A stretch of 64,000 nucleotides of DNA, taken from the IMG/VR virus record IMGVR_UViG_3300034060_000702, positions 1 through 64,000 of that record. One strand, written 5' to 3'. The notes under the pieces are model-generated. The model did no database searches. It was not told where the DNA came from and saw only the letters and a program-made list of their open reading frames with translations. Both the position numbers and the translations under genes were made by a program. This document shows positions 3,001-52,692 of the stretch, piece after piece. How positions within the stretch are numbered: position 1 is the stretch's first letter; every line of letters begins with the position of its first letter. The DNA comes from a virus.

Positions 3001-3288
3001 CTCTTCTTCAGTGATTATTTCATAACTAACCCCTAAAGCTTTAGATAGTTTTGTCAACCAGCGATTAACAGTTTTTTCAGTGTAGCTATATTCTTTTTCA
3101 GCATTGTCTTCTTTTAAGATTGACTCCGGAATATAATCTGCATTAAGTTTATCCAGTTTGTATCGAATAAACTCTGGTGAACCTACATCACCTGTTTCTA
3201 AATAATGTGCATGTACATCAGCCAATGTAACACCTAATTTTTGAAAGTCTTCAAGATTGATTTGATCATTTATACTACATGCTCCCAT
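1..3288 (-). CDS. Giant ejected cargo protein with N-terminal zincin (HExxH) domain; 3'-truncated by the window edge (>1096 aa)
   Basis: Missing from the ORF track because it has no stop in the window. ATG at 3288-3286 overlaps the upstream stop (TAATG). Reads MGACSINDQINLEDFQK...QSVVHEFSHPFVK...KEEVFVRAL, with HEFSH at 2875-2889; the frame is open at both ends where I checked it. Confidence 0.8.
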   Translation of the reverse strand, partial: MGACSINDQINLEDFQKLGVTLADVHAHYLETGDVGSPEFIRYKLDKLNADYIPESILKEDNAEKEYSYTEKTVNRWLTKLSKALGVSYEIITEEEAMELHNEKGKIYSNEPAFFHNGKAYFITGRLTPQSVVHEFSHPFVKMLMKDNPELFNSLYDRLLATEDGKIILDEVTKKYKNRSEDSLKEEVFVRALTASTMMTSPKEEFSSWIKEFLFNVKQALRKLIGKSIEIQNLSPMTTMRELADILSKGDKVAMDAAIYTDEEIFDYMREYTSFDHTFNTALKSKKATDVQELINNAVYAATVQLTSLEENKDTMPGLENLADLLVKEYDQGILAKIKKELGPLATSSDMIIAISKKDDAGALINHADVIAERLTTLTNNLYNIQEMLKVMNEEIPKIKSLTTREQIDTLHYYTTFIDNWNPVVKGLSFVRVNNVGIGTKNDLTDLTDSLSTLMQKAQLTLLDVKTEAVLDELWGMVEPIANKVKDKFNKEASRKSGKIIDITKVFKGQITADQDAHWLEFHNMTKDQYEKFMIMKNAGAVNNKEYKELKSLWMKGLEMTKDKLKDIISNEGVDSNYFNGLLESASFNTDATVFGLQQHIQSEIAKYEVYAKTKFENYLDAVQPYFDQVNFQNRGSVGRELGQVNKVASIVDGEIVEHEEHGFLQEFIGWQSDKVSKQFAVNQAQETFSETNSDADEIKLMDAIQKYADWKNKYMHQQYSAEYYEADKLFTKDDIGRDAKQRRETIFEIMSAINANVNLEESNRTAALNYMWDEYKLLQSFHNLDGTMKTGSDLEVSKRLKEYSEAKSKFIVFNEIPEVFQEAYNSHSKSVTDSGNPLGSDEYKKQMDLWLEQNTVVSLKNSIVDKKQKLLTERASLLETLIAANKNIDDDSEQRQLISDMVKLVTDNSNQPDGITADAEIRKKVRDAHQEIDDMKNNLYNYKGLGLTRAEVDRLKTLQNLSILGTITSQEDIERLDLLSKQLTSGSALGLDPLIIARLNAIDADLAKMSSSIPTDSFRSVVRDLVNDSPALTDVVLSYLEDTGVTLDFAWDIESEDILDFIVNGNLNDAFAASPEFKTFVEENFYEKSVYSADD

Positions 3289-4181
3289 TATCTACAAATT
3301 CTATTAAAGTTATTTACTAAATCCTTACTAACAAAGTTATTGTTTTTCCATAGCATTTCATACAAAAGTTCATTAAATACTGCCATTGCTTCAGCAAGAT
3401 CCTTTGCCATGTAATCATCTATTTCTGTTTGCGAATACACAGATCTTATTGCATTCACTTCACCCGCGCTGTATGTTCCAATCTTTTCAAATGTATTTAA
3501 CACAGGCTCATTAACCTCTAGATTATCATTAAACAAAGATGTTTGAGGACTAGCAAAGTTATTTTCCAATTCCTTAACTGCTATGATGTCTTCACTATTC
3601 CTAAAGTCAAATGATACCACAGAGGAATTATCTTGAACTAAACCACTATAACCCTTTGAAGAAAGAAACTTATAGAAGTTTAGGTTATTTTCTTTTCCTG
3701 CTATACTTTGATCATTTGGATTATATGTTAAACCCAACTTATTAAAGAATAAGTTTTGTAATACAGTGTATCCTTCTTTGTTTTGTTCTGTATCTAAAAA
3801 ATTAGCAGTAGATAAACCACCACTATTCTTATTAGATTCTTCAACAACTTTATAATGTTTTACATTGGTAGTAGTATCATAGTTTTCTGCATTATCAAGA
3901 ACTACTTTTTTTACATTGTAATCATCTTTAACCTTTTGAACTTTTACAAACAAATCTCTATTAATATCAAAAGTCCAATTACCTTTTCGAGATTTGTTTC
4001 TTTCAAACAACATCTTTCCTTGAGCTTTTACTTGATATGTTCTTTCAGCAATTTTTGTTTTGGTTTCATTGTATTCATCAAAGTCTTTTAGATTCAATAC
4101 TAAAAACTCTTCTTTATCAATGATACCATCCCTAGCCATTTCAGCTAGAGAACTATCTAATACACTACATACTGCACCCAT
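3288..4181 (-). CDS. Hypothetical protein (297 aa) in the cargo gene cluster
   Basis: ORF track; co-oriented and tightly packed between two giant genes; no recognisable motif. Confidence 0.75.
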   Translation of the reverse strand: MGAVCSVLDSSLAEMARDGIIDKEEFLVLNLKDFDEYNETKTKIAERTYQVKAQGKMLFERNKSRKGNWTFDINRDLFVKVQKVKDDYNVKKVVLDNAENYDTTTNVKHYKVVEESNKNSGGLSTANFLDTEQNKEGYTVLQNLFFNKLGLTYNPNDQSIAGKENNLNFYKFLSSKGYSGLVQDNSSVVSFDFRNSEDIIAVKELENNFASPQTSLFNDNLEVNEPVLNTFEKIGTYSAGEVNAIRSVYSQTEIDDYMAKDLAEAMAVFNELLYEMLWKNNNFVSKDLVNNFNRICR

Positions 4182-4193
4182 AATACTTACTTA

Positions 4194-7100
4194 TTAACAA
4201 CCAATTTTATCATTATCATACTTACTTTTTTCAGCACCAACTGTAATACTTTTAGGATCAATCGGAGCAGTTTTTGTTACCATTACTAATTTAGTAGTTG
4301 GTCTTGAAACCGCAACATATAATGCTTGATTTTTTGCTTTTGGTGTACCTAAATTTGTATTACCTAAAATGTTGTCAAGCATTACATAAGTATTGGTATA
4401 TGTAGAACCCTGTGCTTTATGTGCAGTAATTGCATAACCATATTGTAAATTACCAAATTCTTTTAACAAACCATAAGCCATTTGACCATCTGTTTTAAAT
4501 AAAGCAGCTACATCTTGTCGAAATTTATTTATTGATGAATTTGCAATAACAGGTATGTCAAATAAATTAACACCTTCTTCATTTATTAAATCTAAATATT
4601 CAACATCATATTTAAAAGATTGAGTTCTATTACCTTTAGCTTCAGAATAAACAGTTATATTAAAATTAACATCAACTTTTTTAGTATTACTAACAACTAT
4701 TAAATCTTCACCATTAGTAAAAACTGGAGATTCATCACCAAATGTATCATACGCCATCAATCTTTCTCCAGGCATAAACTGATTTTTAACAGCATCAAGA
4801 CCATACAAAGCATTTCTAACTTTCATATTCAAATTTAAAACACTTTGTCCACTTGGATTTTTTTCATTGTTAAATGTTATAATTTTAGCAAAATTAGGAT
4901 CATTGCTGTTTTTAACATCATCTACAAATTGATTTATAGCATTTGCTTCATTCTGTTCCCAAAGTAATTCGGAACCAGATACAGAATCTTTTGCATTAAC
5001 CATCATATCAGAAGTAATAACATTTACTTGTGGATCTTTACTTTTTACATTATCTGAAACAACAGTTCCAATTCCAATAATTGGAGATGTAGCTGCTTGT
5101 CGCATCTTTTCAGTTAGTAGGTAATGATTTGAATAACCAAATACTTTACTATCGGAACTTTGTCCAACTGGAGGAAGCTGTGCTCTATCTCCCATGTAAA
5201 TAATTTTAGCTCCTTTTTTCTTCCATTGATTGATTTCAGCAATCATATCATCTTTAAGCATAGACGATTCATCAATTATAACAAAGTCTGCTTTAAGCAT
5301 TGGAACCCATCCTAGTTTTCTTTTTTTTATATTTGGTTTAAATTCACCAGTTGCCTCATCTAATTTAATTGCTAAAGCTGCATCTAATGTTATGGTATTG
5401 ATTTTGTCTTTACTAAATTTTCTATCTCTATTTAAAGAATTATCCAACACTTTTTTTGCTTTGTGAGTAGGTCCAATTGCTAACACAGTACCTTTACTTT
5501 CTAATTCAGCAACAAGATTTTTAATAAGAGTAGTCTTACCTGTTCCTCCAGCACCTTCCAATACAAATTCAGACTCATTAGAACTAATGAAATCATACAG
5601 CTTATCAATAGCTTCACTTTGTCCTTGGTTAGCAAACACACCTGGAAATAACTCATATCTATTTACTTGAGGTTTATTACCAGAAATTGGTTCTACATTA
5701 ACAGGGGTAGGTTCAGTTCTAAATGGTTTACCATTTTGTGGATCTACATTTGGATTCTCATTGTATTTAGCTAATAGTTTGTTTTTATCTGCAGGTTTAC
5801 CTTTGTATCCAACAACATCAACACCTACACCATCTTTGATTACAATAGCATAAGGTTTACCATAGTATTGATAACTATCAGTAGTTGTTTGAGAAGTAGT
5901 TGTTTCTGATTTACTAATAACTTTAGGTGTATCGCCTGTGTTATCAATACCAATTTCAGCAAGTTTTGTATTAAGATATTCCCATATTTTTGGAGCAGTA
6001 TCTTTCATGTTAGAAATTTCACCTTTACCAAAAGGTTTTTCAGCACTAAATTTAACTCCTTTAAAATAACCTTCTCCAATAAAAGATTTTATTCTACGAA
6101 TTTCACGATCAATTTCTTTTTTAAACTCATCAAATTTTTCATCAGTCCATTGAGTTCTTTTGTCATCAACCATTGTTGTTATTGGAAATGCATTAGCCAA
6201 CCCTCTAATTACAGCTTGAGTTTTACCAGGAAATTTTTTATCTGTTCCATAAGTACTAGCATACCAACCAGTAGGTCCTACTAAATTAGGACCAGAAGTT
6301 CTAGCTGCATTATCTGTAAATAAATAAGCATACTCATTATCTTTTGTAACAGACTCTCTAGTAAATCTTTGCGATTCAGTTAAAGCTATTGCTGTTACAG
6401 GTCTGCTTACTAATTCAAATTCAATAGCATAAGGATAATTGTCAACATGGTTATCAGTTACAGATTTCACCCAACCTTCTTTTTCCCATGTAGCATCTTG
6501 ATATTCTTGTGTAAAAGGAACAACTTTAGTAATTCTAGTATAAGCTCTACCAGTTTTTTTATCAGTCATTCTTATTACCTTACCTACAAGATCTTCAATT
6601 TTAGAAAGATTATAGTCTTTCATCATTCTTTCTATATCAGTTTTAGCTCTAGTAGTTCTAGTTCTATCACCTGAAAGAATAAGTTGCATAGTTGATCTAT
6701 CTTTAAATTTAGATTGCATTTGTCTACCTCCATCTCCATCTTTAAAGTTTTGTTGAATAGGTGTTAATTCATCAGCTGCATCAAATTCATTAACACTAGT
6801 AGATGATTGAGTAGGTTGTGCAAATGTTTCTTCATATACCTCTTTAATAGCTTGTTTAGCAGCTGCTTCTTTTGCAGCACCTAAATATTCTTTTCTAGGT
6901 TTCCATTCACCAGTTTTTTTATCTTTTGTGTTATAATTTTCAATATCTCTTGAACCAACACCAGCAAAATTCTTAGTCAAAGTTGGTGTTTCTGTAACTT
7001 CAAAAGTATCTCCATTATATTTATACCAACCTTCAGTAACAATATCCCAAACATAAGTTGGTTTATTCATTTCTATACCAAGTTGTACAGCAGTATTAGT

Positions 7101-10100
7101 ACCTCCAAGAACAGCTGTTTTATCTGAAAATAGTTTAGCAACAGCAAATACAGCATCTGCATTAGCTACTTGATAATAATTTCTAACTTGTAGATTACCT
7201 TCTAAGGTATCAGGATATTTTTCTCCAAGTAATCTTTCTACTTCAGTTCTTGCAGTATCCATTTGTTCTTTAGTAAGAACTGTAGCTGTTACTTTAGCAT
7301 TTTTAAGTTTTTGAGAAAGGTTTGCATTACCTGCATCTTTATAATGCATATGTTTAGTAACTCCAAACTCTCTACCTATCATATCCCAAAAGGTATCTCC
7401 ACCATAAGCACCACCAGAATGATTAGTATAATCAGATGGATTAACACTAGTAGATAGTTGAGTAGTGGAACCTGCAGGTTTCTCAACAGCTCTTCCTACA
7501 GGATTAACATCCGGAGTATGTCTTAAAGTAATACTATATCTAATACCTGCCTGACCACTATTTTTTTCAATTCCATGTTTATATTTAATTTGGGAATCTT
7601 TACCCATTACTAATACATGTCCTTGCTTAGTAGGTATACCAACTTTCTCATTAGCATAGGGAGTGTTTGACATTCCTTCTAATCTAAATATTCTTTCAGC
7701 ACCAAGCGATAATGTAAGCACAGTTGGATTAATATTTTCTTTACCAACCAAGTTAGGTTCTGCATCAGTATGCATTCCTAAACCTTGCTCAAGACCTGTA
7801 TATCGATTAATTAAAGCAGTGTCAAAGTATCCTGGAATAACTCCCATTCTTTTTTCTAATTCTCTAACAGTTTTATCTAACCAAGATGGTAATGGTGCTG
7901 CTGCTTTTGTTATTGTAGAATATTTATATTCAATAGGACCAAAGTAAATTGATTTTGTATTTGCAAAATTTGGAATACCTTGTGCTGGATCAGCTAATAC
8001 TTTAGGAAACTCTCTATCCATGATTTCGAACAACTTGTCTGATTCAACTTTATTGAATACTTCTCCATCAAAAATTTCAGCTCCTGTTATTTCTTGAACT
8101 CTTTTAAATCCAGATAATGTTCCTGCACTAAGAAAACCTGAAGATGTAGTAAGTACTGCATTTTTTTGTTGAGGACTTGTTGCAACAGCATTAATTTGTA
8201 CAAGACTTTTTCTTGCAGTCATCAATGCTCTAGCATACATGTTGTTTAATTTATTTGAAACAGTTCCTTGCAGTAATGCTGCATCCTGTGTATTTACTAA
8301 TAAATTTTTAAAATCTTTATCTTTTTCAATAACTTTTCCAACAACATATTTATAAGCAGACTCAATTGCAACATTGTCAATTACATTTGCTCTAATAAAG
8401 TCAGACCAAGTAGCATTCGGTAAAGATTTATGTGCTTGATATTTTTCTTCTAAACCATATTTATCTGAAAGTTGTTTTGATACTAACTGGTCAATAGAAA
8501 CTTTTACAACTTCATTTTTATTTGATGAAGAAAGTAATGAGTCATCTTTAATAGAAAAAGTACTTTGTGTATTATACAATCCAGATACAGCCATTGAATC
8601 AACTTTAGACATAGCATAATACAAACCATTACCACTTAACATTGGATGTTTTTTATAACCCAATGATTCCAAATGTTCAATGATAAGTTCATTAGCACCT
8701 GGTTTCATTTCAATATTAAATGTAAGATTGTTGTCATGATTTAATCCATCTAAATGTTGTTTGTACTTTTTAAAGTATTCTTTAACAAATTTTGGATCAG
8801 TTATTTCTGAAGAAGAATTAATGTAAGCAGTAGAATAAAGACCTAAATCAGCATTGATAGCAGTTTCACCAAGTCCAGTAAAATAGTCAAACTGTCTAGT
8901 AGTATCTTCTGTTTCACCAACAGCTGAATATGGCATAATTATAGCACTATTTGCATATCTAGCCATTGCAATCTCTATCTTTCTAACACCTTCTAAATAA
9001 GATAAATCAAATTTATTTGTATATTGAATAGTATTATCAAAATAAGAATCATTCTCATAAGAGCCTCCTCTTTTATTTTGCAATTGTCTTTTACTATAGT
9101 TTTCATGATAATTAAGAGCAGTGTATAAATTAAGAACAGAATAATTTACAGCTTCACCAGATCCTATTTTATTTAAACTTTCTAATATTGAATCATATTG
9201 ATTACCGATTACATTTGAAATGTGAGCAGGATCAATAATTTCAGTTACATTAAATTGACCAGCAGTTCTAATTCCAGATTGCAACACAGCAAAGTGATCA
9301 AACTGTTCGAACAATTCTTGAACCTCTGGAATTTCACCATAAGCTTTAAGAATTTCCAATTCCTGTCTGTATATTTTTGAATAACCTGTTTCTTTAATAT
9401 TTGCTAATGAGATATTATGAGAATACTTATTATAGTTATGTCTAATGTCTTCTAAGAAATTAAATTTTCCTATTAGTTCTCCATGCTCACTTGCAACTTC
9501 TAGCAATCTTTTAGCATAAGAAAATGGACCATGCATTAATGTTTCTCTATTTCCAGAAGCAAGTAATGCTTTAGATTCTAAAGCCGCTGTTAAAATTAAA
9601 TCTTCATACTCTTCAGCAGAAATTTCTTTACCTTCAATTGTTTCTTCATTAATACCTACATCACTCAAAGCTTTTTTAGCCAAAATGTAATGCATGCTAT
9701 CTTTAGGAAGATCCATAAAATCTATTTTTCCATATTCAGCTAAGAATTTTAATGCAGCATTTTTAGAACCAAATTTATGAGGCAATGCATTAAGAACATT
9801 AAATCCAAAAGCCAACTCATTTAAGAAAGTTGGATTGTATCTTAACTCACCATCTTTGTAATCATACTTATCTACAGACTCATCTTCAACTAAAGCAATA
9901 TCATTATAAGTATTATCAGTAATTCGATTGCTTTCATTTTGATATAAGTACCAAATAAAATCTTCTTGGAATTGGTTAATGTTATCTTCAGGAAAAATAC
10001 CAGCTTTAAAAGCAATATCTGATTTTTTATCAGCAATAGCAGATAAAGCTTTATTATTTTTTAATGCAGAGAAATTAGAAAATAATTTTAAAATCAATTT

Positions 10101-13100
10101 AGAAGAAGCAAACTTACCAACAATAGTAGAATCAACTCTTTTTAAAATGTCAACAGGCAATGCTGGATTTGACTTAACTAAAGAATCTAATTTTTTTTGT
10201 TTATCTCTAACTTCATTTAACTTGCTTGATGCTTTTGTATCAAATGTTGTAGCTGTTGTTAAACTTGTTATTTGATTTGCAATATTTTCATAAGCAATAA
10301 ATTTATTTAATAAATCAAATTGAACTTCATCTGATATTGGAATAGCTTTTCCAGGTTCAGCAAAAGAATTTTTAATAGCCGCAGTATTAATTGGAGAATT
10401 ATCATTGATTGATAACTTCATAACTTTACCTAAGTTTTGTACTAAATCAACATTAGTATAAAGTTCTTTTGTTTTTGAGTCTATATCCAAACCATTAACT
10501 ACAGATTTATAAGCATCAATATCTTCATACTTAATTAAAGCATCAAAAGTATTTCTATCAAAAGTTGCATTTTGATTTAATACATGTAATGCACCTTGTT
10601 GAACTCTTTTAGCTTCTAAGTAGTTTCGAATAGCAGGTACAGATACAAAATTAACCGCATCTTCTACAGGAACACCCGCCATAAATAAATACAACAATGT
10701 TGGAGTTGCTTCTTTGTTACCTTGGATATTAAAAATCCAACCACCTTTTGCAACATCCACCCAACCATTAATCATTTGTCCTAAAATATCAGGAATGTAT
10801 TCACCAGCTTTGTTTTTTAATGCAGCTAAGTCAATTACTTTTTTTCCATTAATAATTTTAGAATTAAAACTTGGAAAGTGTAAGTTGTAATTTTTATATG
10901 AAAATGCTAAATCTTTTTCTATTTTACCTACATTTTTAGCATCTTCTTTTAGAGCAGCAATAATCTCATTATAATCTTCTAATGTCAAGATGTTTGAATC
11001 TATGTTAGTGTACATACCCATTCGAGTAAACATAGAGAAATACTTGTTTATTACAGCACCAATTCCTAATGTATCTTTACCAACAGAGTTTTCAATTTGT
11101 TTGTTTCTATTGTAAGATGGATCAAAAATCATAGAAGATGAAATCTTAGTTCTAATAGTTTCTTTATCATGAACAGATTGATATTTATTAAATGGAGAAA
11201 CATGAGATTCTAATTCTTTTGCAATTCCATCTACCAAGTTTGTATCATTTGGTCTTACTAAATCGGCATAGTTATCTTCTCTTTCAAGTCTTTCAACTAT
11301 AACATCAATAAGATTATTCTCTAAACCTTTAATCGATTGACCATCTTTTTTAATTTGCAAGTCTGCTAATTCAGATTTCATTGCTTCAAGTTCTCCAAAC
11401 AAAGCAGACTTTTGTCCTAAAGCATCATACACAGAATCTATAATTGCATTTAAAGCTGCAACTTCTTTTTCATTTTCAGCAAGTGCCTTTTTTTCTTTGG
11501 TTGTTAATTTACCTGAAGTAGTTTTAATTGCTTCTTTAAGTAGTTTTCTATTTTCTTTTATTTCAGATAAGACTTGTTTTTGCTCTAATGTATCTTGATT
11601 TGCTTCGATGTAATCAAACACTTCTTTTCTTTTATTAGAAATGTTTTCTTTTAATGTAGAGATCTTAGAGTTTAACTCATTGATGTCTTCTTTAGGAAGA
11701 GCTTTGATCTTCTTAACTTCACCATTGTATAGTCCAAGATTGGCCATCATTGTGAATAATTTATCCACATCATAATCGGCTCCAGACTTAGCAACAATTT
11801 CAGAAGGTAGAATAATAACATTACCTGCAATTTTTGGTAAGAATGAATGTATCTCCATAAATTCAACAGAGTTCATCGCTTGACCAGGTATCCTACAGGT
11901 AGTCATGATAAATAAATCCATGTTTTCTTTTTTCCAAACAGGATCAACCATCAAAGCATTCAATTTATCTAAAGTTGAATCATAATCTAATGTTTTTACT
12001 TTAGTTCCATCTTTACTTGTTTTAGTAATGTATGTAGCAATAGACTTACCATCTTTACCTTTTATGTATAAAAGCTTTTCAAAGTCACCTTGCAATGCAA
12101 TTTTAACTTGCATCGCTTTGATCTTTCCATCTTTTCTATAGTAACTTCTTAAACCATTAGTACCATACTCTAATTGCTCTTCAGTAGTAGCTTTTTTCCA
12201 TTGTGAACCTTTTTTCTCACTCATAGTAGAAGCCATCTGAATAAGACCTTCACCATTAACTTTCATCTTAGTTAATCTTTTATCAATCAAAGACACAAGC
12301 ATTTTAGATACTTGTCCTTCAGTTAATGCAAGAGAGATGTCATTTTTAAGAGCACTGTTGTTAAATAAGAAATCAATTTGAGCATCATCAATTTCACTTC
12401 TTGTCAACTCACTTCTAATTAAATTAGCAAGTTTTTCAGAACTTCTTGAGATGTCAGCTTCTTCAGTAATACCAAGTTCATTAAACAACTCTTGTTTTTT
12501 AAACTCAACTATGTCTTCTATTGTTTTTTCATACTTAACTAACCACTGATAGTCATTAGACTTTAACTTTTCAGTTTCAGACATTTCCTCCCATTTACTT
12601 TGAAAATCTTTTTTATCAAACTCTTGCAATTCAAACATTGCAGAAACATCTTTAGGAACCCCATTATCCATTAATCCAGCATACAAGATTGCTCTCATTT
12701 GAGTAGGTAATGTAATCTTACCTTTATACTCATTATGTATCTTGATTTGGTTTTTCAAATACTTAACATGAATAATGTTTGGTGTAAATTTGAAAGTAGG
12801 ATCTGTAGTAGTTTCTCTAGTTTCTTTATTGTAGTAATCATCATTAGGTGATTCTGATTCAGAATTAGATACAGATGTAAGTTTAGAACCAGATGCAAAA
12901 GTCATATAGTCAATCCCCTGCTCCATCATTTTATCATGAAGATCTTCTAACTTAGTTCCTTTAATCATGTTAGGAATTAATGGAATAAGATTGAATTTAT
13001 GAAAAGCCATACCAGGTAAACCATCAGTTTTAACTGGACCAAAATGTTGTAACTTCATTGATTCAAAGAACTCATTTACTCTAGTCTGATCAAATGCAAC

Positions 13101-16100
13101 TCCATTAACAATGTTGTTATACATTGCTTCTTTAACTGGCGACCATAAACCTTGAGATATAGAAAGCATTCTGTAGAAGTCAAAAGAAATAAATCCTTGA
13201 CCATCTGCTTCATTCATATTATTGTAAGGACCTAATGAATTTTTGATGTCTTCTGCTAACTCATCTAAGTAAATAGAATTAACTTTATGGTCATTGATAA
13301 TTGCAGTTACAACTGTACCATCATATGACCTAAATTCTTTTTCAGGTTTTATATTTCCAGACTTAACTCTTGATTGAGCATAGTTTCTACTTTTATTATT
13401 TTCAACAACATCTCCACTTTTAAATGGAAGTGTATTTAATGTTTGTAACATTGATGTGTCATGTCTAAAACCTTCACCTGTTGAAATAATACCTGCAATC
13501 CTTTTATGGAAATCTTCTTTGCTAACATCATATAATGCTGGATCACCTAAAAACATTGTAGTAAAATTCAAATAGTTTAAGAATTGATTTCTTTCAAACA
13601 TTGAAATCAATATCTCTTTAGATTCATCAACAGAAAGTTTTGTTTTAGCATTACCGCTAATCTCTGTTCGAACTCCTTCTGCTAAATAAAAAGTATCTTT
13701 TTTATTCTTTAAAGTGTTATCAGTTTTTTCTTTAAAATACTGGTTAATCTCTTTTGTAATAACAGATTTAGATTTTTCAACTTCTTTTAAAACTTCATCA
13801 AAGTTAGTTGAATTGATTTCTTTTAGTTTACCCTTAGTTTCATTTGTAAGCAAAGCATCAAAGATAAAAAACTCTTGACCTCTTGCTTTGTAATTCTTAT
13901 CTATGTTACCTGTCGCGCTTTTTAAAGTATTAATCCTAACTATTTCTGCAGCAATATATTTCTTTAAAGCAGAATACATTTTATTATTTGTATCTGCCTG
14001 TGTCTTGATTGCTTTAGCATCAGTAACATCAAATATAGGTTTAGCATTATTTAAACCAAAGTGAAATGAAGATGACTTATCAGCCATCCTTGGAGCTTCT
14101 GCTTTACCATAGTAACTTAAATAAACATCAGTAATAAACTTTGAATTTTCATCCAAAGACATATTGCTTAAACCTCTTTCAACTAATGATTCATATTCAT
14201 TTTCACCAATAAGTTTTTGAAAGTATTTAGTACCAGAAAAGTTTTCATATTCTATTGCTACATTTCCTTGCTTGGTACTTTGTTTCTTACCATTTTCATC
14301 AAACAATTCATTCAACCATGTATTTGCTTTTTTAAATGGATCAAGATTACCATCTAAGTGTTCAAAAGCATTGTCCTTAGTTAACTCTTGTAATGTTTGC
14401 GCATTATTAATACCATTGATTTGATGAGTAATAGAACTATTTAAAACCAATTCCGAAGCTGTTTCACCTTCAGCATTAGTACCCATAAATGAATTATAGT
14501 TGTTAGAGTATTTGAACTCAACTTCCTGCAATGTCTTATAAAAACCACCAAGCCCTTTTACTTTTTCATAAGTTTCATTACCCTGCTCATCAGTATTTTT
14601 AACACTGTAATCTTTAATTAAATCAGTAATACTATTGATCCTTTTATCAAAGTCTGTTGTTTTTATAGAAGAATCATTTCTTAATCTATTAATAAAATCA
14701 TCAAGCAATCCACCAGGAATTCCAGAGTCTTTATCGCCTTTAAATAATACTTTATTTACTTCAGCAGTATCAGTAAGATTAACACCAATAGCATTAAACT
14801 TTTGTGCAATACTTGCTTTTGGATTTGCTTCTAACCACTCTAATGCTTTTTTAACATTAAGATATGGACCATGAATATCTACTTCAATATTTGGACTTAA
14901 TTCAAATGCAGTATTCCAGTTATTTCTAACTTGAGATGTCGAACTTGAAACAGAACCATATTTAAGATTAATTCCAATTTCTTTACCATCATTTACTCTT
15001 TCAAACAAAAGTTGTTTAAGAGGCATATTTGATTTACTGAAAGTCTGGAAAAATTTACTCCATAATATTTGAGAACCTAAATGTATTGGGAGTTCCCCAT
15101 TTACCAAAGGCATTCTTTTAAGAACTTCTTGAATGATTGGATCTTTAGAATCTCTCAATACAGCAAACATTGTATCTGGATTTGCAGATGACATTGTTTG
15201 TTTAGCAACTATCGATAATACTTTTACTTTATTGCTTAATAGATGTACACCCAAAGCATTTGTTACCTTCTCTCCTTTTTCATTAAAATCAGGAACAGTA
15301 CTTAACAACATTAATATTTCTTTGTCCGCATATTCCTCTAAAGAAATATCTTTTCTTTCTTTAAATGGATCTGTTTCATCTCTTTCAGTATCTTCTTCTG
15401 CAATACTCTTCAACCCTTGTTGAGTAATAAATAACCCAGAAGAAATATGAGCACCAATGACACCAGTATTAGCACCAGTTTCACTAACATTTTTTTCAAT
15501 ATCTTCTAAGTTACCAAACTCTGCAATAGAAAAAGTTAATGCTTCAACTTGTTTTGCAACTTGAGCAATCTTCATTTTTTGTGCAGCATCTGGATTACTA
15601 ACCTTAGATAAAGATTCTTGAATTTTTAATTGATTTTCTTTTATCTCAATCAGTTTAAGTTTAGCATGTTTGTACAATGGTGTGATGTCATCAAGTGTAG
15701 TAATTTTCATATTACCATTCTTGATTTTTTCAGAGTATGCTTCATTTACCAATGTATTAACTGTATCTACAATTAATTTACTTTGAGCTGCATCTAACTT
15801 ACCATTCTTAGGATCACTAAATGCAGTAATAGAAGCATTCATTCTACCCCAAAACATATTAGCTTCAGGATTGTATTTAGTAAAATCAACTTTGTTATCA
15901 ACTAAGTCTTTGAAGTATTTATCAGTAAGTGTTTTTCTCTTAAAGATTTTTGTAATAGCATCAAGTAAATTCTTAAAGAATTTTTGAAGCATGTTACCTT
16001 TAGGAGAAATCTTATTTGTTGCATAAGCTCTAAACTTTTCCGCTAAGAATTCCTCTACAGCTTTATCATTCTTGAAATTCTCATTTGGGTATGATTTTTT

Positions 16101-18218
16101 AACTTCAAAGTAAAGTTTATTCTTTTGTTCTTTAGTCAATATACCTTGTGTAAAAGCATGCCATGCTTCATGGTATATCAATGTATTATTAGAACCTTTG
16201 TATAATGTTATACCACTTGTAAACCATTGTGCTAATGCATGTGGATGTTTCTTATCACTAAAATCTAAATCCAATTCACTTTTCATGTCATGAGCTTTAA
16301 ACCAACTTAGTGCAGCAGCTTCTGCTTTTTCAGTAACAGTTTCTAATTCAATTGTATTTGATGCAAGTACATCATCATCAGCATAATCATCAAACTCTTC
16401 AAATGTTGGAGGAGTTGGTTTAATATCTTCCGCAGGTGCAACTTCATCAGCAGTTTCAACCTCAACTTCTTTTTCAGCAGTTACAGGAACAGCAGTGCTA
16501 ACTGAAAAACCAATTCGAGGATGATACAATCTTAATTCATTAGCGGTACTTGTTTCAGCAAGAGTGTAACTATTATTCATAATATGTGCATTATGAGTAA
16601 TAGGTGTAAGAACTAAAGCATTACCTTCCATTCTAAAAGTATTTCCAGCTTTAATCTTAAAAGAGAAATTAGGTTTTCCTACAGTATGAAGTTTACCACT
16701 AGCTGTTCTAAATAAATCATTTTTAGATTTAGCTTCAGCAATATCAGTAACAATATTTTTCTTTTCTGTTTTTCCTGTATATTCTTTTTTCTGTACTGAT
16801 AATTTTGTAAAATGATTAGTCAATGCTTCTGCTAAACCTTCATCAAATAACTTAAATGCTTTATCAACAATTATAATTTTACCATCTGGTTTAAATTTAA
16901 TTGGTGAATCTGAAGCAACATTTACATACTTTTTAAACAAATCCATTCTTTGTTCAGGAGTCTGCACAGCATCATCAACAGTAAGTTCAGGATTAGTAAG
17001 TAATTCAATTAAAGATTTTACAATATCTGGACTTGTATCTAATGAAGATGGATAAAGAGAAACAGGAGTTGTATGTAAAGTATGACTAGTTAATGCATAA
17101 AACTGAAACAATAGTTTTCCATTTTCATTATGTTCTTCCTTTGTTATAACTTCAAATTGATTGTAATCTTTTACACTAGTTATTTTAGTTTCTTTACCTG
17201 AATCTTGATTTATGTAACCAAAATTAGAATTTTCAAGATTGACATCCAATAAGAAACCTTCTGCTTTATTTTGGTTAGCTTTCTTATTAATGTCATTTAA
17301 AATCTGTAGTTCATTTGCTAATTGCTCAAAAGCCATTCGCATAGCTTTACCAGGTTCTAAATCTTTATTGTTAAATTCAATAGCTCTTGCTAATTTTTCT
17401 TGAACTTTTCTAATTCTTAAATTAGCATCTGTAGCCTTAAATCCTTTTTGTTCATTAAAAGGTTTTTTAAAATCATATCCTTCAAATAAAGCATCTGGAT
17501 TATTTGTATATGTAGAAAATATAAAAACCTTACCTTCTTTAGATATGATTTTTCCATCTTTATCAGTCATTAAAAAAACTAATGCTTCAGGACTAGTAAC
17601 AGAATCTCCAACAAGATTTCTTTCTAATTCTAAGCCAGCACTTTCAATTAATTTTCTTGCAGCACCAAGTTTAATAGCTAATACTTTATGTTCAGCATTT
17701 GCCATAATATCAGTTAACACTTCTCTAACAAAAGCAAATGCTTCTGCTTTACTTGGATCTACTGTTCTTACCTCTCCTGTAAACTCTGGAGTTTGGTTTG
17801 TTAAAACTTCGACATGTGATGGATTGAACTTAGAAAAATCTACAAAATTTTCTTCTTCAGTTTCAATTGGATTTTCTTCAACATCAATTGTATCTACAAT
17901 TAATTTTTGATAACCTTTTATTAAATCACTAACAGCTTTTGTGCTGTTCATAGCAGTCATAGTTTTTGCTAAGTCTGCCTCAATGTTAAGACCTGGAAAA
18001 CTTCCATTTAAAGCAATAGGAAGAAACAACATATGCTGTACTACCAAATCAATATTTGATTGATTGTTAGCATCACCAGACTTCATTAAAGCAGCATTGT
18101 ACATTCTCTTGTACAACTGATCTTTTGATTGAATGGTTTTAGTGTTTATTAATTTTGCTTGAGATTTAAAAAGTTTTACAAAATCTTTTATTGACTGTTC
18201 ATTAATACATACATTCAT
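4194..18218 (-). CDS. Virion-packaged single-chain DNA-dependent RNA polymerase polyprotein (phi14:2 gp66-like), fused to zincin, AlkB, SLOG, ASCH, macro-like and SF1B helicase domains
   Basis: RNAP motifs: EADGQG, TCRIPGQ, catalytic GADYDVDK (~11760-11783), GKDTLGIGA, NGWVDVAK. Zincin HEAWH at 16158-16172. AlkB HTD...H...RYSITLR. Helicase GAGGTGKT, IIDESSM, GDRAQLPPV, TAHKAQGSTY, YVAVSR. Confidence 0.9.
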   Translation of the reverse strand: MNVCINEQSIKDFVKLFKSQAKLINTKTIQSKDQLYKRMYNAALMKSGDANNQSNIDLVVQHMLFLPIALNGSFPGLNIEADLAKTMTAMNSTKAVSDLIKGYQKLIVDTIDVEENPIETEEENFVDFSKFNPSHVEVLTNQTPEFTGEVRTVDPSKAEAFAFVREVLTDIMANAEHKVLAIKLGAARKLIESAGLELERNLVGDSVTSPEALVFLMTDKDGKIISKEGKVFIFSTYTNNPDALFEGYDFKKPFNEQKGFKATDANLRIRKVQEKLARAIEFNNKDLEPGKAMRMAFEQLANELQILNDINKKANQNKAEGFLLDVNLENSNFGYINQDSGKETKITSVKDYNQFEVITKEEHNENGKLLFQFYALTSHTLHTTPVSLYPSSLDTSPDIVKSLIELLTNPELTVDDAVQTPEQRMDLFKKYVNVASDSPIKFKPDGKIIIVDKAFKLFDEGLAEALTNHFTKLSVQKKEYTGKTEKKNIVTDIAEAKSKNDLFRTASGKLHTVGKPNFSFKIKAGNTFRMEGNALVLTPITHNAHIMNNSYTLAETSTANELRLYHPRIGFSVSTAVPVTAEKEVEVETADEVAPAEDIKPTPPTFEEFDDYADDDVLASNTIELETVTEKAEAAALSWFKAHDMKSELDLDFSDKKHPHALAQWFTSGITLYKGSNNTLIYHEAWHAFTQGILTKEQKNKLYFEVKKSYPNENFKNDKAVEEFLAEKFRAYATNKISPKGNMLQKFFKNLLDAITKIFKRKTLTDKYFKDLVDNKVDFTKYNPEANMFWGRMNASITAFSDPKNGKLDAAQSKLIVDTVNTLVNEAYSEKIKNGNMKITTLDDITPLYKHAKLKLIEIKENQLKIQESLSKVSNPDAAQKMKIAQVAKQVEALTFSIAEFGNLEDIEKNVSETGANTGVIGAHISSGLFITQQGLKSIAEEDTERDETDPFKERKDISLEEYADKEILMLLSTVPDFNEKGEKVTNALGVHLLSNKVKVLSIVAKQTMSSANPDTMFAVLRDSKDPIIQEVLKRMPLVNGELPIHLGSQILWSKFFQTFSKSNMPLKQLLFERVNDGKEIGINLKYGSVSSSTSQVRNNWNTAFELSPNIEVDIHGPYLNVKKALEWLEANPKASIAQKFNAIGVNLTDTAEVNKVLFKGDKDSGIPGGLLDDFINRLRNDSSIKTTDFDKRINSITDLIKDYSVKNTDEQGNETYEKVKGLGGFYKTLQEVEFKYSNNYNSFMGTNAEGETASELVLNSSITHQINGINNAQTLQELTKDNAFEHLDGNLDPFKKANTWLNELFDENGKKQSTKQGNVAIEYENFSGTKYFQKLIGENEYESLVERGLSNMSLDENSKFITDVYLSYYGKAEAPRMADKSSSFHFGLNNAKPIFDVTDAKAIKTQADTNNKMYSALKKYIAAEIVRINTLKSATGNIDKNYKARGQEFFIFDALLTNETKGKLKEINSTNFDEVLKEVEKSKSVITKEINQYFKEKTDNTLKNKKDTFYLAEGVRTEISGNAKTKLSVDESKEILISMFERNQFLNYLNFTTMFLGDPALYDVSKEDFHKRIAGIISTGEGFRHDTSMLQTLNTLPFKSGDVVENNKSRNYAQSRVKSGNIKPEKEFRSYDGTVVTAIINDHKVNSIYLDELAEDIKNSLGPYNNMNEADGQGFISFDFYRMLSISQGLWSPVKEAMYNNIVNGVAFDQTRVNEFFESMKLQHFGPVKTDGLPGMAFHKFNLIPLIPNMIKGTKLEDLHDKMMEQGIDYMTFASGSKLTSVSNSESESPNDDYYNKETRETTTDPTFKFTPNIIHVKYLKNQIKIHNEYKGKITLPTQMRAILYAGLMDNGVPKDVSAMFELQEFDKKDFQSKWEEMSETEKLKSNDYQWLVKYEKTIEDIVEFKKQELFNELGITEEADISRSSEKLANLIRSELTRSEIDDAQIDFLFNNSALKNDISLALTEGQVSKMLVSLIDKRLTKMKVNGEGLIQMASTMSEKKGSQWKKATTEEQLEYGTNGLRSYYRKDGKIKAMQVKIALQGDFEKLLYIKGKDGKSIATYITKTSKDGTKVKTLDYDSTLDKLNALMVDPVWKKENMDLFIMTTCRIPGQAMNSVEFMEIHSFLPKIAGNVIILPSEIVAKSGADYDVDKLFTMMANLGLYNGEVKKIKALPKEDINELNSKISTLKENISNKRKEVFDYIEANQDTLEQKQVLSEIKENRKLLKEAIKTTSGKLTTKEKKALAENEKEVAALNAIIDSVYDALGQKSALFGELEAMKSELADLQIKKDGQSIKGLENNLIDVIVERLEREDNYADLVRPNDTNLVDGIAKELESHVSPFNKYQSVHDKETIRTKISSSMIFDPSYNRNKQIENSVGKDTLGIGAVINKYFSMFTRMGMYTNIDSNILTLEDYNEIIAALKEDAKNVGKIEKDLAFSYKNYNLHFPSFNSKIINGKKVIDLAALKNKAGEYIPDILGQMINGWVDVAKGGWIFNIQGNKEATPTLLYLFMAGVPVEDAVNFVSVPAIRNYLEAKRVQQGALHVLNQNATFDRNTFDALIKYEDIDAYKSVVNGLDIDSKTKELYTNVDLVQNLGKVMKLSINDNSPINTAAIKNSFAEPGKAIPISDEVQFDLLNKFIAYENIANQITSLTTATTFDTKASSKLNEVRDKQKKLDSLVKSNPALPVDILKRVDSTIVGKFASSKLILKLFSNFSALKNNKALSAIADKKSDIAFKAGIFPEDNINQFQEDFIWYLYQNESNRITDNTYNDIALVEDESVDKYDYKDGELRYNPTFLNELAFGFNVLNALPHKFGSKNAALKFLAEYGKIDFMDLPKDSMHYILAKKALSDVGINEETIEGKEISAEEYEDLILTAALESKALLASGNRETLMHGPFSYAKRLLEVASEHGELIGKFNFLEDIRHNYNKYSHNISLANIKETGYSKIYRQELEILKAYGEIPEVQELFEQFDHFAVLQSGIRTAGQFNVTEIIDPAHISNVIGNQYDSILESLNKIGSGEAVNYSVLNLYTALNYHENYSKRQLQNKRGGSYENDSYFDNTIQYTNKFDLSYLEGVRKIEIAMARYANSAIIMPYSAVGETEDTTRQFDYFTGLGETAINADLGLYSTAYINSSSEITDPKFVKEYFKKYKQHLDGLNHDNNLTFNIEMKPGANELIIEHLESLGYKKHPMLSGNGLYYAMSKVDSMAVSGLYNTQSTFSIKDDSLLSSSNKNEVVKVSIDQLVSKQLSDKYGLEEKYQAHKSLPNATWSDFIRANVIDNVAIESAYKYVVGKVIEKDKDFKNLLVNTQDAALLQGTVSNKLNNMYARALMTARKSLVQINAVATSPQQKNAVLTTSSGFLSAGTLSGFKRVQEITGAEIFDGEVFNKVESDKLFEIMDREFPKVLADPAQGIPNFANTKSIYFGPIEYKYSTITKAAAPLPSWLDKTVRELEKRMGVIPGYFDTALINRYTGLEQGLGMHTDAEPNLVGKENINPTVLTLSLGAERIFRLEGMSNTPYANEKVGIPTKQGHVLVMGKDSQIKYKHGIEKNSGQAGIRYSITLRHTPDVNPVGRAVEKPAGSTTQLSTSVNPSDYTNHSGGAYGGDTFWDMIGREFGVTKHMHYKDAGNANLSQKLKNAKVTATVLTKEQMDTARTEVERLLGEKYPDTLEGNLQVRNYYQVANADAVFAVAKLFSDKTAVLGGTNTAVQLGIEMNKPTYVWDIVTEGWYKYNGDTFEVTETPTLTKNFAGVGSRDIENYNTKDKKTGEWKPRKEYLGAAKEAAAKQAIKEVYEETFAQPTQSSTSVNEFDAADELTPIQQNFKDGDGGRQMQSKFKDRSTMQLILSGDRTRTTRAKTDIERMMKDYNLSKIEDLVGKVIRMTDKKTGRAYTRITKVVPFTQEYQDATWEKEGWVKSVTDNHVDNYPYAIEFELVSRPVTAIALTESQRFTRESVTKDNEYAYLFTDNAARTSGPNLVGPTGWYASTYGTDKKFPGKTQAVIRGLANAFPITTMVDDKRTQWTDEKFDEFKKEIDREIRRIKSFIGEGYFKGVKFSAEKPFGKGEISNMKDTAPKIWEYLNTKLAEIGIDNTGDTPKVISKSETTTSQTTTDSYQYYGKPYAIVIKDGVGVDVVGYKGKPADKNKLLAKYNENPNVDPQNGKPFRTEPTPVNVEPISGNKPQVNRYELFPGVFANQGQSEAIDKLYDFISSNESEFVLEGAGGTGKTTLIKNLVAELESKGTVLAIGPTHKAKKVLDNSLNRDRKFSKDKINTITLDAALAIKLDEATGEFKPNIKKRKLGWVPMLKADFVIIDESSMLKDDMIAEINQWKKKGAKIIYMGDRAQLPPVGQSSDSKVFGYSNHYLLTEKMRQAATSPIIGIGTVVSDNVKSKDPQVNVITSDMMVNAKDSVSGSELLWEQNEANAINQFVDDVKNSNDPNFAKIITFNNEKNPSGQSVLNLNMKVRNALYGLDAVKNQFMPGERLMAYDTFGDESPVFTNGEDLIVVSNTKKVDVNFNITVYSEAKGNRTQSFKYDVEYLDLINEEGVNLFDIPVIANSSINKFRQDVAALFKTDGQMAYGLLKEFGNLQYGYAITAHKAQGSTYTNTYVMLDNILGNTNLGTPKAKNQALYVAVSRPTTKLVMVTKTAPIDPKSITVGAEKSKYDNDKIGC
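6789..6814. repeat. 26-bp direct repeat, copy 1 (encodes linker TQSSTSVN)
   Basis: attaacactagtagatgattgagtag; 24/26 identical to 7440-7465. Confidence 0.85.
7440..7465. repeat. 26-bp direct repeat, copy 2 (encodes linker TQLSTSVN)
   Basis: attaacactagtagatagttgagtag; 24/26 identical to 6789-6814. Confidence 0.85.
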
Positions 18219-21200
18219 TATTTACAAGCTTTAAAGTGTTCTAAAATATCTTCATCGGTTACTTCCTCATCTGCAATTGCAAATGATTGAGTTGTAAATT
18301 TAGACAAAATACTTGACAAGTCATCAAGATTATTTTGATCTAAAGCACTAACAATTTCATCTTGTTTCAAGTTGAAATCATTGATAACTTTTTTTACATC
18401 GGTATTGAATTGTTTAGAATTCAGCTCAACTTTATTTTCAATTATGCTGTTAAAATCAACAACTTCAATCGAACCTATTTTTGAGCTTGGTGAAATTGTA
18501 TTCACTTTTGAAACTTTTACAATTCTACCATCAGTAAGTAAAAGTTTATCCCCTACAGATAATGTACTAAAATCTTTTTGATTAGCCAAATCTATCTTAG
18601 CTTGATTGAATATATTTTGTATGAATGGTAAATGAATATCATTAATCTCATTCAATGTAACACCTAACTTAGTAGTAGCATACTTAACTAATTCTTCATA
18701 CACATCTACTAAACCTGATTCAGTTTTTATTCCAGTAAATCTATTTTTTAAAAAATCAGTTATTCCAGATTGTACTTGATTTTCAACTTTAAGTTTATTC
18801 AAAGCTTTTTGTTCTGCTACATATTGTGCTTTAGTAATTTCATTCTTTACTATATGCATCTTAACTGCTTTAGATAATCGCTTGATGTCAGTAGGAGTAT
18901 ATCCTAATTCTTTCAGTTTAGAATCTTGTGTAGCAAAAATTGGTTCATTGTTATCTACTACATCTGCAGCTGCATTTAGGATTTCTTCTTCAGTTGGTTC
19001 TTTAGGAAGAGTGGATTTAGCTGTAGTATCATAATCAGTTATAGCTACATTGCCTAAAAATCTATCACCTGAATACACTTGAATTACATTATCTAGATCT
19101 TTTTTACCTGGTCTTTTTAACACAGGAACCAATTTTAATGTAACAGGTTTACCAAAGTCTTCTGCTTTAATCGCTGTATTATGATCAAAAATAATAACTT
19201 TTTCACCATCTACTTCTATTACAAAACCAGTAGAACTACTTGGAGTTTTACCAGTCAACTTTGCTTTTATTGATTTACCACTAGTAAGTTTATCAACTAT
19301 CTTTTCATGCATAGATTGATTTCTTCCTACAGGTTGTTCAGCAGGTTTAATATCTTCTAAAGCAATACTTAAAACACCATCTGTAAAGTATCCAATATTT
19401 AAACTAGATGGTAGTTGTCTTTTTGCAACATCATCTATAAAGTTTTCTTCTAAGTAGTTTTCTAGTTTATCTTGTAAACTTTTACCTGGAGCACTTTCAA
19501 GAGTAGCTCTATCAATACTTCCTATAAATAAATCTAAATATCCTCTATGAGGAGACTTACCTTCAGCTAAATCAAATAATAGTTGCTTTAATTGTTCTTT
19601 ATTAACAATTCCTGTAGTAGAACTTACTCCAGCAGGCATTTTCAAACTATCATTAAAAATGTTTTTAGCATTTCCTTCTGAAGTTACATGAGTTATAAAT
19701 AATAAATTATCAGGTAAATTATTTATTATTCTTTCTATATCAGCTTTAGTATCTGTAGTAGTAGGGTTATCTCCTACACCACTATCTACTTTTTTTTCAG
19801 TTTCAGTTTTTTCTTGAACAACTGGAGTATTTTTTTTAATAATACTTTCAGCAATAGGAATTAAAGCATCAACCATTTCCTTAGTTGTTGTAGGATTCTT
19901 ATAAGAAGTTCTATTTTCAGAAAGTTGTTTTGCTTTTTTAATCAAAGGTTCAGCAACTTCAGAAGCAGACATTCCATCTGGTAATGCAATTACAATAGCT
20001 GTATATACAGATGGTCTATTAGAACCAGTTGAATCTGATTTTTGAATTGGTATTTTAACATCTACATATCTAACACCATTGCTATTAAAAGTTTCATCAT
20101 AAGTATAGTTGTGTAATTTTTTTTGATTTCTTATATCCACAGTGGACATATCATTTGTTTTATTATCAGAACTATATTTAATACCAAATCCACCTTGTCC
20201 ATCATAAGCTCTCCATTCAAAAACAGAGTTATCTTGTTTTGTATTTTTAACTCTATCCAAAAACATTTCAAAAGCTCTTTTAGATATTTCTTCTTTAGTT
20301 GGAGCTTTTGCTTTTCTAAATAATTTTTTATTTGCTGTTGCTTCTTTTTCTAATTCTTCTTTTGCAAGTTTTTCTAAAAAAGCTTTTGGAGAATGTATTC
20401 CAGTTCTAAAACTATCTTGGAAATATAATTTTTTTAATGCTTCCTCATCAGTTCTTAAAAACTCTTCTGCTTGAGATGTAGTTTCTTGTGATTGATTAAC
20501 AGGTTCAACTGTTTCTACAGGTTTAGTTTGTGCACCAGAGAACAATGAGTCTTCTGCAGTTTTAAGATATGCATCAATGTTTTTAAATGTAGTACTTTCA
20601 TACTTATTGAATTTAGGATTCTCACCTTTCCAATTTGTTTTAACAAACCAACCATCTTTTGCAAAACTAAATAATGGTGTCCATTCTCCTTTTGAAGCAG
20701 CACCTGTACCAAGTCCAGTAGATTTATATACTAAAAATCTTTTACCATCAGCAAATACATCTACAATTAATCTTCCAGCAACTTGAGTTCGAAAACTACC
20801 TATTGTCCATTCTGAATTATTTGCATCTAAACTTTGACCAAACTCATAAAGATCTTGAATTTCTTTTGAAATAGCCAGTTTATTACCATCATATCCAGAA
20901 ATTTCTTGATTAACCCATTCATCAAATATATCAGGTCTATCAGATTGATCATCAACTACTACAACATCAGTATTAGCACCTATTGATTTTGGTTGCTTTG
21001 GATTTTCTTTTTGATTTGTTTCACTACTAACTGTATCGCTTGTTCCCTCTCCTGTGGTGTCAATAGGGATTGTTTCTTCACTAGTTTCTTCATCGGATTC
21101 AATTATTATATTTTCATCTATTAATTCATCTATTACTTTTTCTTCAAGAGTTACTTCAGGACTTGTTAAAACTTCATCTGTAAGAGCTTGTTCAACTTGT

Positions 21201-28856: not shown

Positions 28857-28913
28857 AGTTTTTAATGTAAATATATTAATTATTTAATAACCAAAAATTA
28901 GTTATCCTTATGA

Positions 28914-31757: not shown

Positions 31758-31760
31758 ATT

Positions 31761-42554: not shown

Positions 42555-42564
42555 AATAAATTAT

Positions 42565-45582: not shown

Positions 45583-45587
45583 AAAAA

Positions 45588-46253: not shown

Positions 46254-46273
46254 AGCATTAGTTTTTTATAAAG

Positions 46274-46867: not shown

Positions 46868-46869
46868 AA

Positions 46870-48519: not shown

Positions 48520-48529
48520 AATTATATTT

Positions 48530-50122: not shown

Positions 50123-50127
50123 AATTT

Positions 50128-50793: not shown

Positions 50794-50796
50794 ATC

Positions 50797-51321: not shown

Positions 51322-51322
51322 A

Positions 51323-51334
51323 ATATATAATATA
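51323..51334 (-). promoter_or_regulatory. Putative late promoter element TATATTATATAT
   Basis: Exact 12-mer ending 1 nt before the ATG of 50797..51321. Confidence 0.5.
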
Positions 51335-51349
51335 ATAAATTTTTGTCAA

Positions 51350-51979: not shown

Positions 51980-51981
51980 CT

Positions 51982-52110: not shown

Positions 52111-52111
52111 C

Positions 52112-52678: not shown

Positions 52679-52692
52679 TTTTTCTTTAATTT

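Follow-up and report, generated by a model that had tools for sequence, protein, structure and literature searches.

The RNA polymerase module of a freshwater crAss-like phage

The window analysed here is the first 64 kb (64,000 nucleotides, nt) of an 82,460-bp linear IMG/VR virus record, IMGVR_UViG_3300034060_000702, whose CheckV completeness is 69%. It has a G+C content (GC) of 30%, and nearly every gene lies on the minus strand. A block of very large open reading frames (ORFs) encodes four consecutive proteins: one of 2369 amino acids (aa), a giant of 4674 aa, a small protein of 297 aa, and a last giant that runs off the start of the contig. Cysteine (Cys) is almost absent from these proteins except at the ends that face a neighbour in gene order, a pattern that recurs among related phages and that may mark an intermolecular disulfide chain. 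PHROG matches to the portal, the major head protein and the tail fibres are found upstream of the block, on the same strand. The gene order matches that of phi14:2 and of gut crassviruses: the block comes last among the structural genes, behind those for the portal, major capsid, tail and Cys-free cargo.

In a tblastn search, residues 1537-2196 of the 4674-aa protein matched phi14:2 gp66 and the RNA polymerase (RNAP) of IAS virus, and the DFDxD motif (D2148, D2150 and D2152) is invariant across an alignment of 23 sequences. By homology, the 4674-aa protein is a crAss-type virion RNAP, and for that reason we equate the block with the Crassvirales RNAP module (gp67-gp66-gp65 in phi14:2, gp47-gp50-gp49 in crAss001). 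We identify the source as a freshwater crAss-like phage and the block as its RNAP-module cargo proteins. The giant also carries a zincin-like HEAxH sequence, of which Y682, H683, E684, A685 and H687 are kept in at least 90% of 23 homologues, and its AlkB-like, DprA-like, DUF7831 and Dda helicase domains all fall in the C-terminal third. With the exception of one weak match, the 2369-aa, 297-aa and last-giant proteins matched no PHROGs or Pfam family.

The block resembles the modules of phi14:2 and crAss001 in its homologous proteins, its DFDxD RNAP core, its module position and the terminal-Cys rule described below. It differs from them in having four chain members rather than three, owing to the 297-aa linker, and in the 4674-aa size of its RNAP, with an added toolkit of AlkB, DprA-like, DUF7831 and helicase domains. 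Module proteins of both cultured phages have been detected in virions by mass spectrometry (phi14:2: genome record notes; PMC10172136), and RNAP-module proteins are thought to be ejected partly unfolded through constrictions of <50 A (PMC10172136).

Cysteines at the facing ends of the chain proteins

The four chain proteins contain seven Cys in 8,436 residues (Table 1), against ~130 expected from the 1.54% Cys content of ORFs of 150 aa or more that are not in the cargo block (binomial P ~2e-46). The facing termini, taken as 5 residues each and 30 positions in all, contain six of the seven, and at least six of seven would fall there by chance with P ~1.4e-14. The seventh, Cys2108 of the RNAP, is its sole internal Cys; it lies within TCRIPGQ and adjoins an invariant RIP. 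A preliminary description of this DNA had proposed that lone terminal Cys join the proteins head to tail. All the termini that it read (FKACK-stop, MNVC, KIGC-stop, MGAVC, RICR-stop and MGAC) are present in the translated sequence, and the near-absence of Cys elsewhere was correctly seen, as was the one internal Cys. Each of the three window junctions has a Cys on both sides, and the TAATG coupling that it reported at two of them is there, the third having a 12-nt spacer. The enrichment in the first and last 5 residues, proposed as a check, is borne out by the figures above.

Judged from its Cys pattern, which the equivalents in relatives share, the 2369-aa protein probably acts as the chain initiator. 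By the same kind of evidence the 297-aa protein is a putative extra chain link, and the last giant would be a chain terminator without a C-terminal Cys, as its homologues are. Intramolecular cyclisation was considered and rejected, because the first and last chain proteins have a single Cys each. An AlphaFold2 single-sequence model of the 297-aa linker had a predicted local distance difference test score (pLDDT) of 36 and gave no usable distance between its termini.

Table 1. Chain proteins, junctions, RNAP motifs and domains, and other features of the record
Feature	Position	Strand	Details
First chain protein, 2369 aa	18218..25327	-	starts MPDKIK, without N-terminal Cys; ends FKACK-stop; sole Cys in the translation 2368 (codon 18226..18224)
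Virion RNAP giant, 4674 aa	4194..18218	-	starts MNVC, ends KIGC-stop; Cys 4 (18209..18207), 2108 (11897..11895) and 4674, the final residue (4199..4197)
Linker protein, 297 aa	3288..4181	-	starts MGAVC, ends RICR-stop; only Cys 5 (4169..4167) and 296 (3296..3294)
Last giant, 1096 aa visible	1..3288	-	starts MGAC; runs off contig start; only Cys in the visible residues 4 (3279..3277)
Junction 1	18207..18226	-	A-C-K-stop overlapping M-N-V-C (TAATG overlap)
Junction 2	4167..4199	-	I-G-C-stop, 12-nt spacer, then M-G-A-V-C
Junction 3	3277..3296	-	I-C-R-stop overlapping M-G-A-C (TAATG overlap)
Zincin HExxH	residues 683-687 of RNAP giant
DFDxD motif	residues 2148-2152 of RNAP giant
AlkB-like domain	residues 3429-3566 of RNAP giant
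DprA/SLOG-like domain	residues 3592-3736 of RNAP giant
DUF7831	residues 3950-4083 of RNAP giant
Dda-like helicase	residues 4196-4662 of RNAP giant
Three upstream cargo-like Cys-poor proteins (1169, 947, 781 aa)	25347..34106	-	2, 2 and 0 Cys, none terminal
Upstream cargo-like protein of the ~1100-1200-aa type	25347-28856	-	Cys in mini-loop, residues 128-134
Tail-fibre and other tail-region proteins	41388-52690	-	2-6% Cys
72-aa basic ORF near capsid genes	55757-55975	-	only Cys is last residue (KMKKGC)
514-aa ORF, beyond the window	71122-72666 (record position)	-	only Cys is last residue (SNNC)

Conservation of the junction cysteines

Single-protein searches of IMG/VR for related loci, with the C-terminal 500 aa of the RNAP and with the 297-aa protein, found no match; an alignment-based scan gave 80 loci. 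Junctions between adjacent same-strand ORFs of at least 150 aa were dereplicated and scored for a Cys among the final 8 residues of protein i and among the initial 8 of protein i+1. Cys was present on both sides in 135 junctions and on neither in 67, with 4+3 mismatches (Fisher P 9.5e-46, a value that overstates independence, as the loci are phylogenetically related). Six of the seven mismatches are explained: in L049 and L073 the sole Cys lies 10 and 9 residues from the end, respectively, in L075 and L082 a small Cys-containing ORF stands between two chain genes and the Cys pair skips it, and the L042 mismatch is between two small ORFs, both with Cys, that lie beyond the chain on its downstream side.

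Chains have 2, 3, 4 or 5 members. In all complete chains the intermediate members have a Cys at both ends, whereas the N-terminal Cys is missing from the first member and the C-terminal Cys from the last. Together, 220 unique chain proteins hold 311 Cys in 534,119 aa; 22 of these Cys are internal, and the other 289 are found at most 10 residues from an end. At the N-terminus the Cys occupies position 3-6, and the C-terminal Cys, often Lys-flanked, typically lies 1-4 residues from the end. The stubs beyond the junction Cys average 4-5 residues in total (maximum 12), and their lengths on either side of a junction are uncorrelated (Spearman -0.14, P 0.10). Pairing persists over gaps of up to 524 nt with inserted ORFs.

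The two giants were also surveyed individually. From a large protein collection we recovered 59 homologues of the RNAP giant (20-85% identity). Exactly 2 Cys are found in 35 of the 59, in ~4,000 residues each, and 1-3 in most of the others. A Cys lies at most 8 residues from the C-terminal end in 54 of 59 and at most 6 from the N-terminal end in 40 of 59; many of the proteins without the latter are incomplete or have a different called start. In the 23-sequence alignment the column of C4674 is invariant and the consensus sequence opens with MxC. For the last giant, 29 full-length homologues were found: 28 have an N-terminal Cys, 0 have a C-terminal Cys, and 22 have exactly one Cys.

Cultured and gut crassviruses follow the same rule. 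In phi14:2 the sole Cys of gp67 is its final residue, 1797; the only Cys of gp66 (2180 residues) are C3 and C2179, and gp65 has C3 alone. In crAss001 the sole Cys of gp47 is residue 2339 of 2341, gp50 has C5, an internal C1334 and C2404 of 2412, and gp49 has C5 alone, with gp47 encoded on the strand opposite to gp50 and gp49. The phages cr128_1, IAS virus, cr108_1, cr1_1 and cr4_1 and the intestivirid Rudgehvirus also obey the rule, some gut phages having somewhat more internal Cys. IAS gp058 is again on the opposite strand and keeps it.

The RNAP gp056 of IAS virus (L083:14135-23117) is without an N-terminal Cys. Its start is overlapped by gp055 (Cys 5, 31 and 834 of 837), and the sequence contains Ns there; gp055 and gp056 may be one protein broken by sequence gaps. 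In cr108_1 (L084:21383-21674, NC_055878) the annotated RNAP ORF stops within the catalytic motif (AKAGSD) and resumes ~290 nt further on (LYDIDKM), a break in the DFDxD site that looks like an intron-like insertion.

As crAss001 gp47 and IAS gp058 keep the rule from the opposite strand, and inserted ORFs are skipped, neither gene adjacency nor translational coupling is required, and the constraint is, on this comparison, one that acts on the proteins. The preliminary description had proposed linkage in gene order and pointed to the TAATG coupling; adjacency and coupling are not needed. The same data bear on the explanation that the pattern is due to chance, to composition, or to a DNA- or RNA-level translational-coupling signal that happens to encode Cys, to which we give practically no weight. 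Such a signal would fit the TAATG overlap at two of the three window junctions and the 30% GC of the genome, but it does not fit probabilities of ~1e-14 and 2e-46, the variable distance of the Cys codon from stop and start codons, or the survival of the rule in opposite-strand genes of crAss001 and IAS virus and across gaps of up to 524 nt with inserted ORFs. In addition, TGT and TGC are not disfavoured by AT richness, and the neighbouring tail proteins have 2-6% Cys. The comparative data indicate that this explanation is already refuted.

Conservation in related phages was a further expectation of the preliminary description, and the terminal Cys are conserved in the 80 IMG/VR loci and in cultured and gut crassviruses alike. 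That the junction rule is kept across the whole order Crassvirales is strongly backed by these comparisons. We found no report of a terminal-Cys rule for crassviruses in the literature.

Gene fusion, fission and inserted ORFs

The first protein and the RNAP are fused in L068 (4065 aa) and L074 (4665 aa), as is visible through N-terminal offsets of ~1,100-1,200 aa. These fused proteins have no internal Cys and belong to two-member chains. BLAST of split termini onto the fused L068, L074 and L023 proteins gave only the N-terminal offsets and resolved nothing at the junction itself. The reverse event is also seen. Two proteins of L029 (583 and 1852 aa) are colinear with the unsplit 2352-aa protein of L016 (residues 1-563 and 594-2348), and a new SCKL / MSKC pair has appeared at the break, where L016 has no Cys. 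Similarly, 396-aa and 2186-aa proteins of L075 are colinear with a 2131-aa protein of L046, with a new Cys pair exactly at the break. The Cys pair is thus present exactly at polypeptide discontinuities, being absent in fusions and gained at fission breaks.

The small linkers correspond to parts of the giants beside them. The 297-aa protein of the window is homologous to a linker of 323 aa in L011, and the N-terminal ~100 residues of that L011 protein resemble the N-terminal segment of last giants elsewhere; for this reason the 297-aa protein looks like a fission product. An ORF with a GIY-YIG-like motif (L075:19168-19761) sits at the fission point of the last giant, and in L082 a small Cys-containing ORF (8017-8520) lies between two chain genes. 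These examples suggest that homing-endonuclease insertion can split giant genes.

Fusion and fission also bear on the proposal that each terminal Cys acts alone, for example in acylation, in attachment to the portal, other cargo or another virion protein, or in homodimers. The 72-aa and 514-aa ORFs of Table 1, each with a sole terminal Cys and no obvious partner, and the odd case of L023 (see below) are in keeping with lone action. The proposal leaves unexplained, however, the constant lack of an N-terminal Cys in the first protein and of a C-terminal Cys in the last, and it does not account for joint loss at fusions, joint gain at fissions or the skipping of inserted ORFs. We judge it quite improbable. 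Taken together, the parity, fusion/fission and opposite-strand evidence from the compared genomes contradicts both lone action and the chance or nucleic-acid-signal explanation.

Proposed disulfide linkage and its precedents

A precedent for a disulfide between the facing ends of two ejected proteins exists in the cyanopodophage A4 (Anabaena phage A-4L). Cryo-electron microscopy of the virion pre-ejectosome showed a disulfide between gp27 Cys1715 and gp26 Cys5 (PNAS 2025, PMC12002296). In the A-4L genome (NC_024358) the two genes are adjacent, Cys 1715 is the sole Cys of the 1717-aa gp27, and Cys 5 is the sole Cys of the 1114-aa gp26. This is the same sequence signature as at every window junction, and in A4 the bond is physically verified. 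A C-terminal Cys upstream and an N-terminal Cys downstream are found at the junctions of the window and at 139 unique junctions of relatives. A4 differs in that its pre-ejectosome, which is T7-like and fivefold, has one bond joining two proteins, with no RNAP and no multi-link chain, and its gp27-gp26 bond was treated as a local stabiliser, not as a general rule (PMC12002296). A phmmer comparison of A4 gp26-29 with all collected chain proteins gave no match at E<=1, and the resemblance is best regarded as one of mechanism, by analogy, and not of family.

The purge of internal Cys has a parallel in the Schitoviridae, in which Cys suppression in the ejection operon is documented (N4 gp50-52 and DEV gp71-73; PMC11445570) and has been attributed to passage through the tail and periplasm (PMC11445570). 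We counted 0 Cys in the 4,294 aa of N4 (L089) gp50/51/52, and a single Cys (gp14 residue 2) in the 2,261 aa of T7 (L091) gp14/15/16. Cys avoidance looks general for ejected podophage proteins, as far as these sequences indicate. As in the crassvirus chain, the giant virion RNAP of Schitoviridae and its co-ejected proteins are nearly Cys-free, although the Schitoviridae and crassvirus RNAP folds are unrelated (PMC13434306). In Schitoviridae, however, suppression is total and the RNAP is one chain, whereas crassviruses retain Cys exactly at inter-protein junctions. The window's chain proteins show the Schitoviridae kind of suppression, with a Cys frequency far under the proteome average, but not a complete absence of conserved Cys, as the terminal Cys are both conserved and paired.

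With these precedents in mind, we consider it fairly likely that the RNAP-module proteins are joined by junction-specific disulfides into a single N-to-C thread, in which form they are packaged and ejected before the host cytoplasm reduces the bonds. Internal Cys have been purged, as in other tail-injected phage proteins, and one Cys is kept 1-10 residues from each facing terminus; the C-terminal Cys of protein i would bond to the N-terminal Cys of protein i+1. The four proteins of the window would then form one unbranched thread of uniform N-to-C polarity and ~9,300 residues, a post-translational counterpart to the polyprotein that certain relatives make from one fused gene. Since links at the extreme termini leave only short stubs, an unfolded thread could still pass a narrow tail channel. 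Only links of this kind suit the threading of an unfolded chain; this would account for the loss of internal Cys as well as for the places in which Cys remains. The link would preserve the fixed order and the 1:1 ratio of the parts during packaging and ejection, and the reducing cytoplasm would afterwards separate the RNAP from its partners; release by cytoplasmic reduction is plausible. In two-chain AB toxins, an interchain disulfide is reduced in the target cytosol, freeing the active chain. The likeness consists in a single interchain disulfide holding translocated cargo to its partner until a reducing compartment is reached and is an analogy only; the proteins are unrelated, the translocation system is different, and no membership is claimed.

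A disulfide is not the only way in which two facing thiols could meet. The Cys pair may instead bridge a metal ion, as the preliminary description allowed, or mark a non-covalent docking site, and the pairing statistics fit any two-thiol contact. On the other hand, each terminus offers one thiol, the position profiles reveal no conserved His, Asp or second Cys near either Cys, the distance of the Cys from the ends varies over 1-10 residues, and the A4 precedent is a disulfide. With a lone thiol at each end, and neither a conserved His nor a further Cys close by, a shared metal ion is the less likely form of linkage, and we regard metal binding or docking without a disulfide as very improbable. 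Of the head-to-tail linkage originally proposed, the pairing is strongly backed by comparison and the disulfide has its precedent in A4, but the metal alternative has lost ground.

The same junction pairing could also be transient, with disulfides forming during assembly, or in the host periplasm at ejection through host Dsb enzymes, and being absent from the stored virion. The junction rule is silent on timing, and the DEV paper refers to a proposal that Cys is avoided in ejected proteins as these have to pass a disulfide-catalysing periplasm (PMC11445570). However, the equivalent A4 bond was seen in the intact virion (PMC12002296), and a periplasmic link would need the termini to meet in transit. 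We think this alternative unlikely.

Several points weigh against a disulfide thread in the virion. The disulfide has been physically observed only in A4 and in no crassvirus. The crAss001 atlas does not mention cargo cysteines, although the structural disulfides that it describes in the tail and portal vertex of the virion count in favour of the thread (PMC10172136), and the phi14:2 preprint, which records a fusion of the three proteins in some phages, makes no mention of cysteines; virion mass spectrometry of crAss001 has already been run both reduced and non-reduced (PMC10172136). The host cytoplasm is reducing. No thioredoxin or glutaredoxin gene was found in the 82,460-bp, 69% complete record, and the comparisons offer no explanation for how the correct termini would meet or how C-C and N-N pairing would be avoided. 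In the window, the last giant is cut off by the contig start, so that its end of the chain is taken from homologues only, and the relatedness of the 80 loci reduces the weight of the Fisher test. Finally, one junction, in L023, is unexplained, with a C-terminal Cys without a partner and an RNAP giant without an N-terminal Cys. At this locus (L023:1-2858) the incomplete upstream ORF ends KKMNC, the next protein, of 679 aa, is Cys-free, and the RNAP giant is of 4102 aa.

In its broadest form, the disulfide thread would apply to Crassvirales as a whole. The virion RNAP and its partner giants would be injected as one disulfide-stitched megaprotein of 5,000 to >9,000 residues, which fission and homing-endonuclease insertion cut and fusion welds, the terminal Cys pair replacing the peptide bond, and cytoplasmic reduction would release and perhaps activate the RNAP. 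We give this wider proposal about an even chance. Crassviruses are the most abundant gut phages, and the way in which they get ~700 kDa to 1 MDa of RNAP-module protein into the particle and out through a narrow tail is an open question (PMC10172136; PMC13434306). If correct, a covalent chain would explain the fixed order and stoichiometry of the module, the interchange of its split and fused forms among lineages, and the internal-Cys purge, and it would offer a possible redox trigger for the start of early transcription. The terminal-Cys rule is also a simple annotation aid, which identifies members of the ejected chain and their order in uncultured phage genomes. Cys suppression in N4-like ejection proteins (PMC11445570) and the single A4 disulfide (PMC12002296) were already known; what is added here is the four-member chain with a fission-like linker, the homing-endonuclease and fission examples, and the survey of last-giant homologues.

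Other cysteines and redox genes

In addition to the lack of thioredoxin and glutaredoxin genes, no match to the Erv1 family was found in the 82,460-bp record; the Erv1 control matched nothing in any control genome either. Small thioredoxin-like genes are found in the replication blocks of gut crassviruses (cr108_1 gp046, L084; cr128_1 gp059, L087; and Rudgehvirus 'TRX', L088).

The 72-aa basic ORF near the capsid genes had no PHROG match, and neither it nor the 514-aa ORF, each with its only Cys as the last residue, has an obvious partner.

The few Cys of the upstream cargo-like proteins, which are outside the chain, form close pairs, CX5C (128/134) and CX8C (474/483), so that internal Cys in this part of the cargo block occur as short-range pairs only. 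The first pair comprises the only two Cys of a ~1100-1200-aa protein and lies in a conserved mini-loop, C-x-D-P-[DE]-K-C-G-G, that is also present in L011:1691 and L044:2933. The CX8C of the 947-aa protein recurs in phi14:2 gp69 (369/378). The tail-fibre and other tail-region proteins, several of which start with paired Cys, contrast sharply with the cargo block in their Cys content (Table 1) and recall the disulfide-stabilised tail of crAss001.

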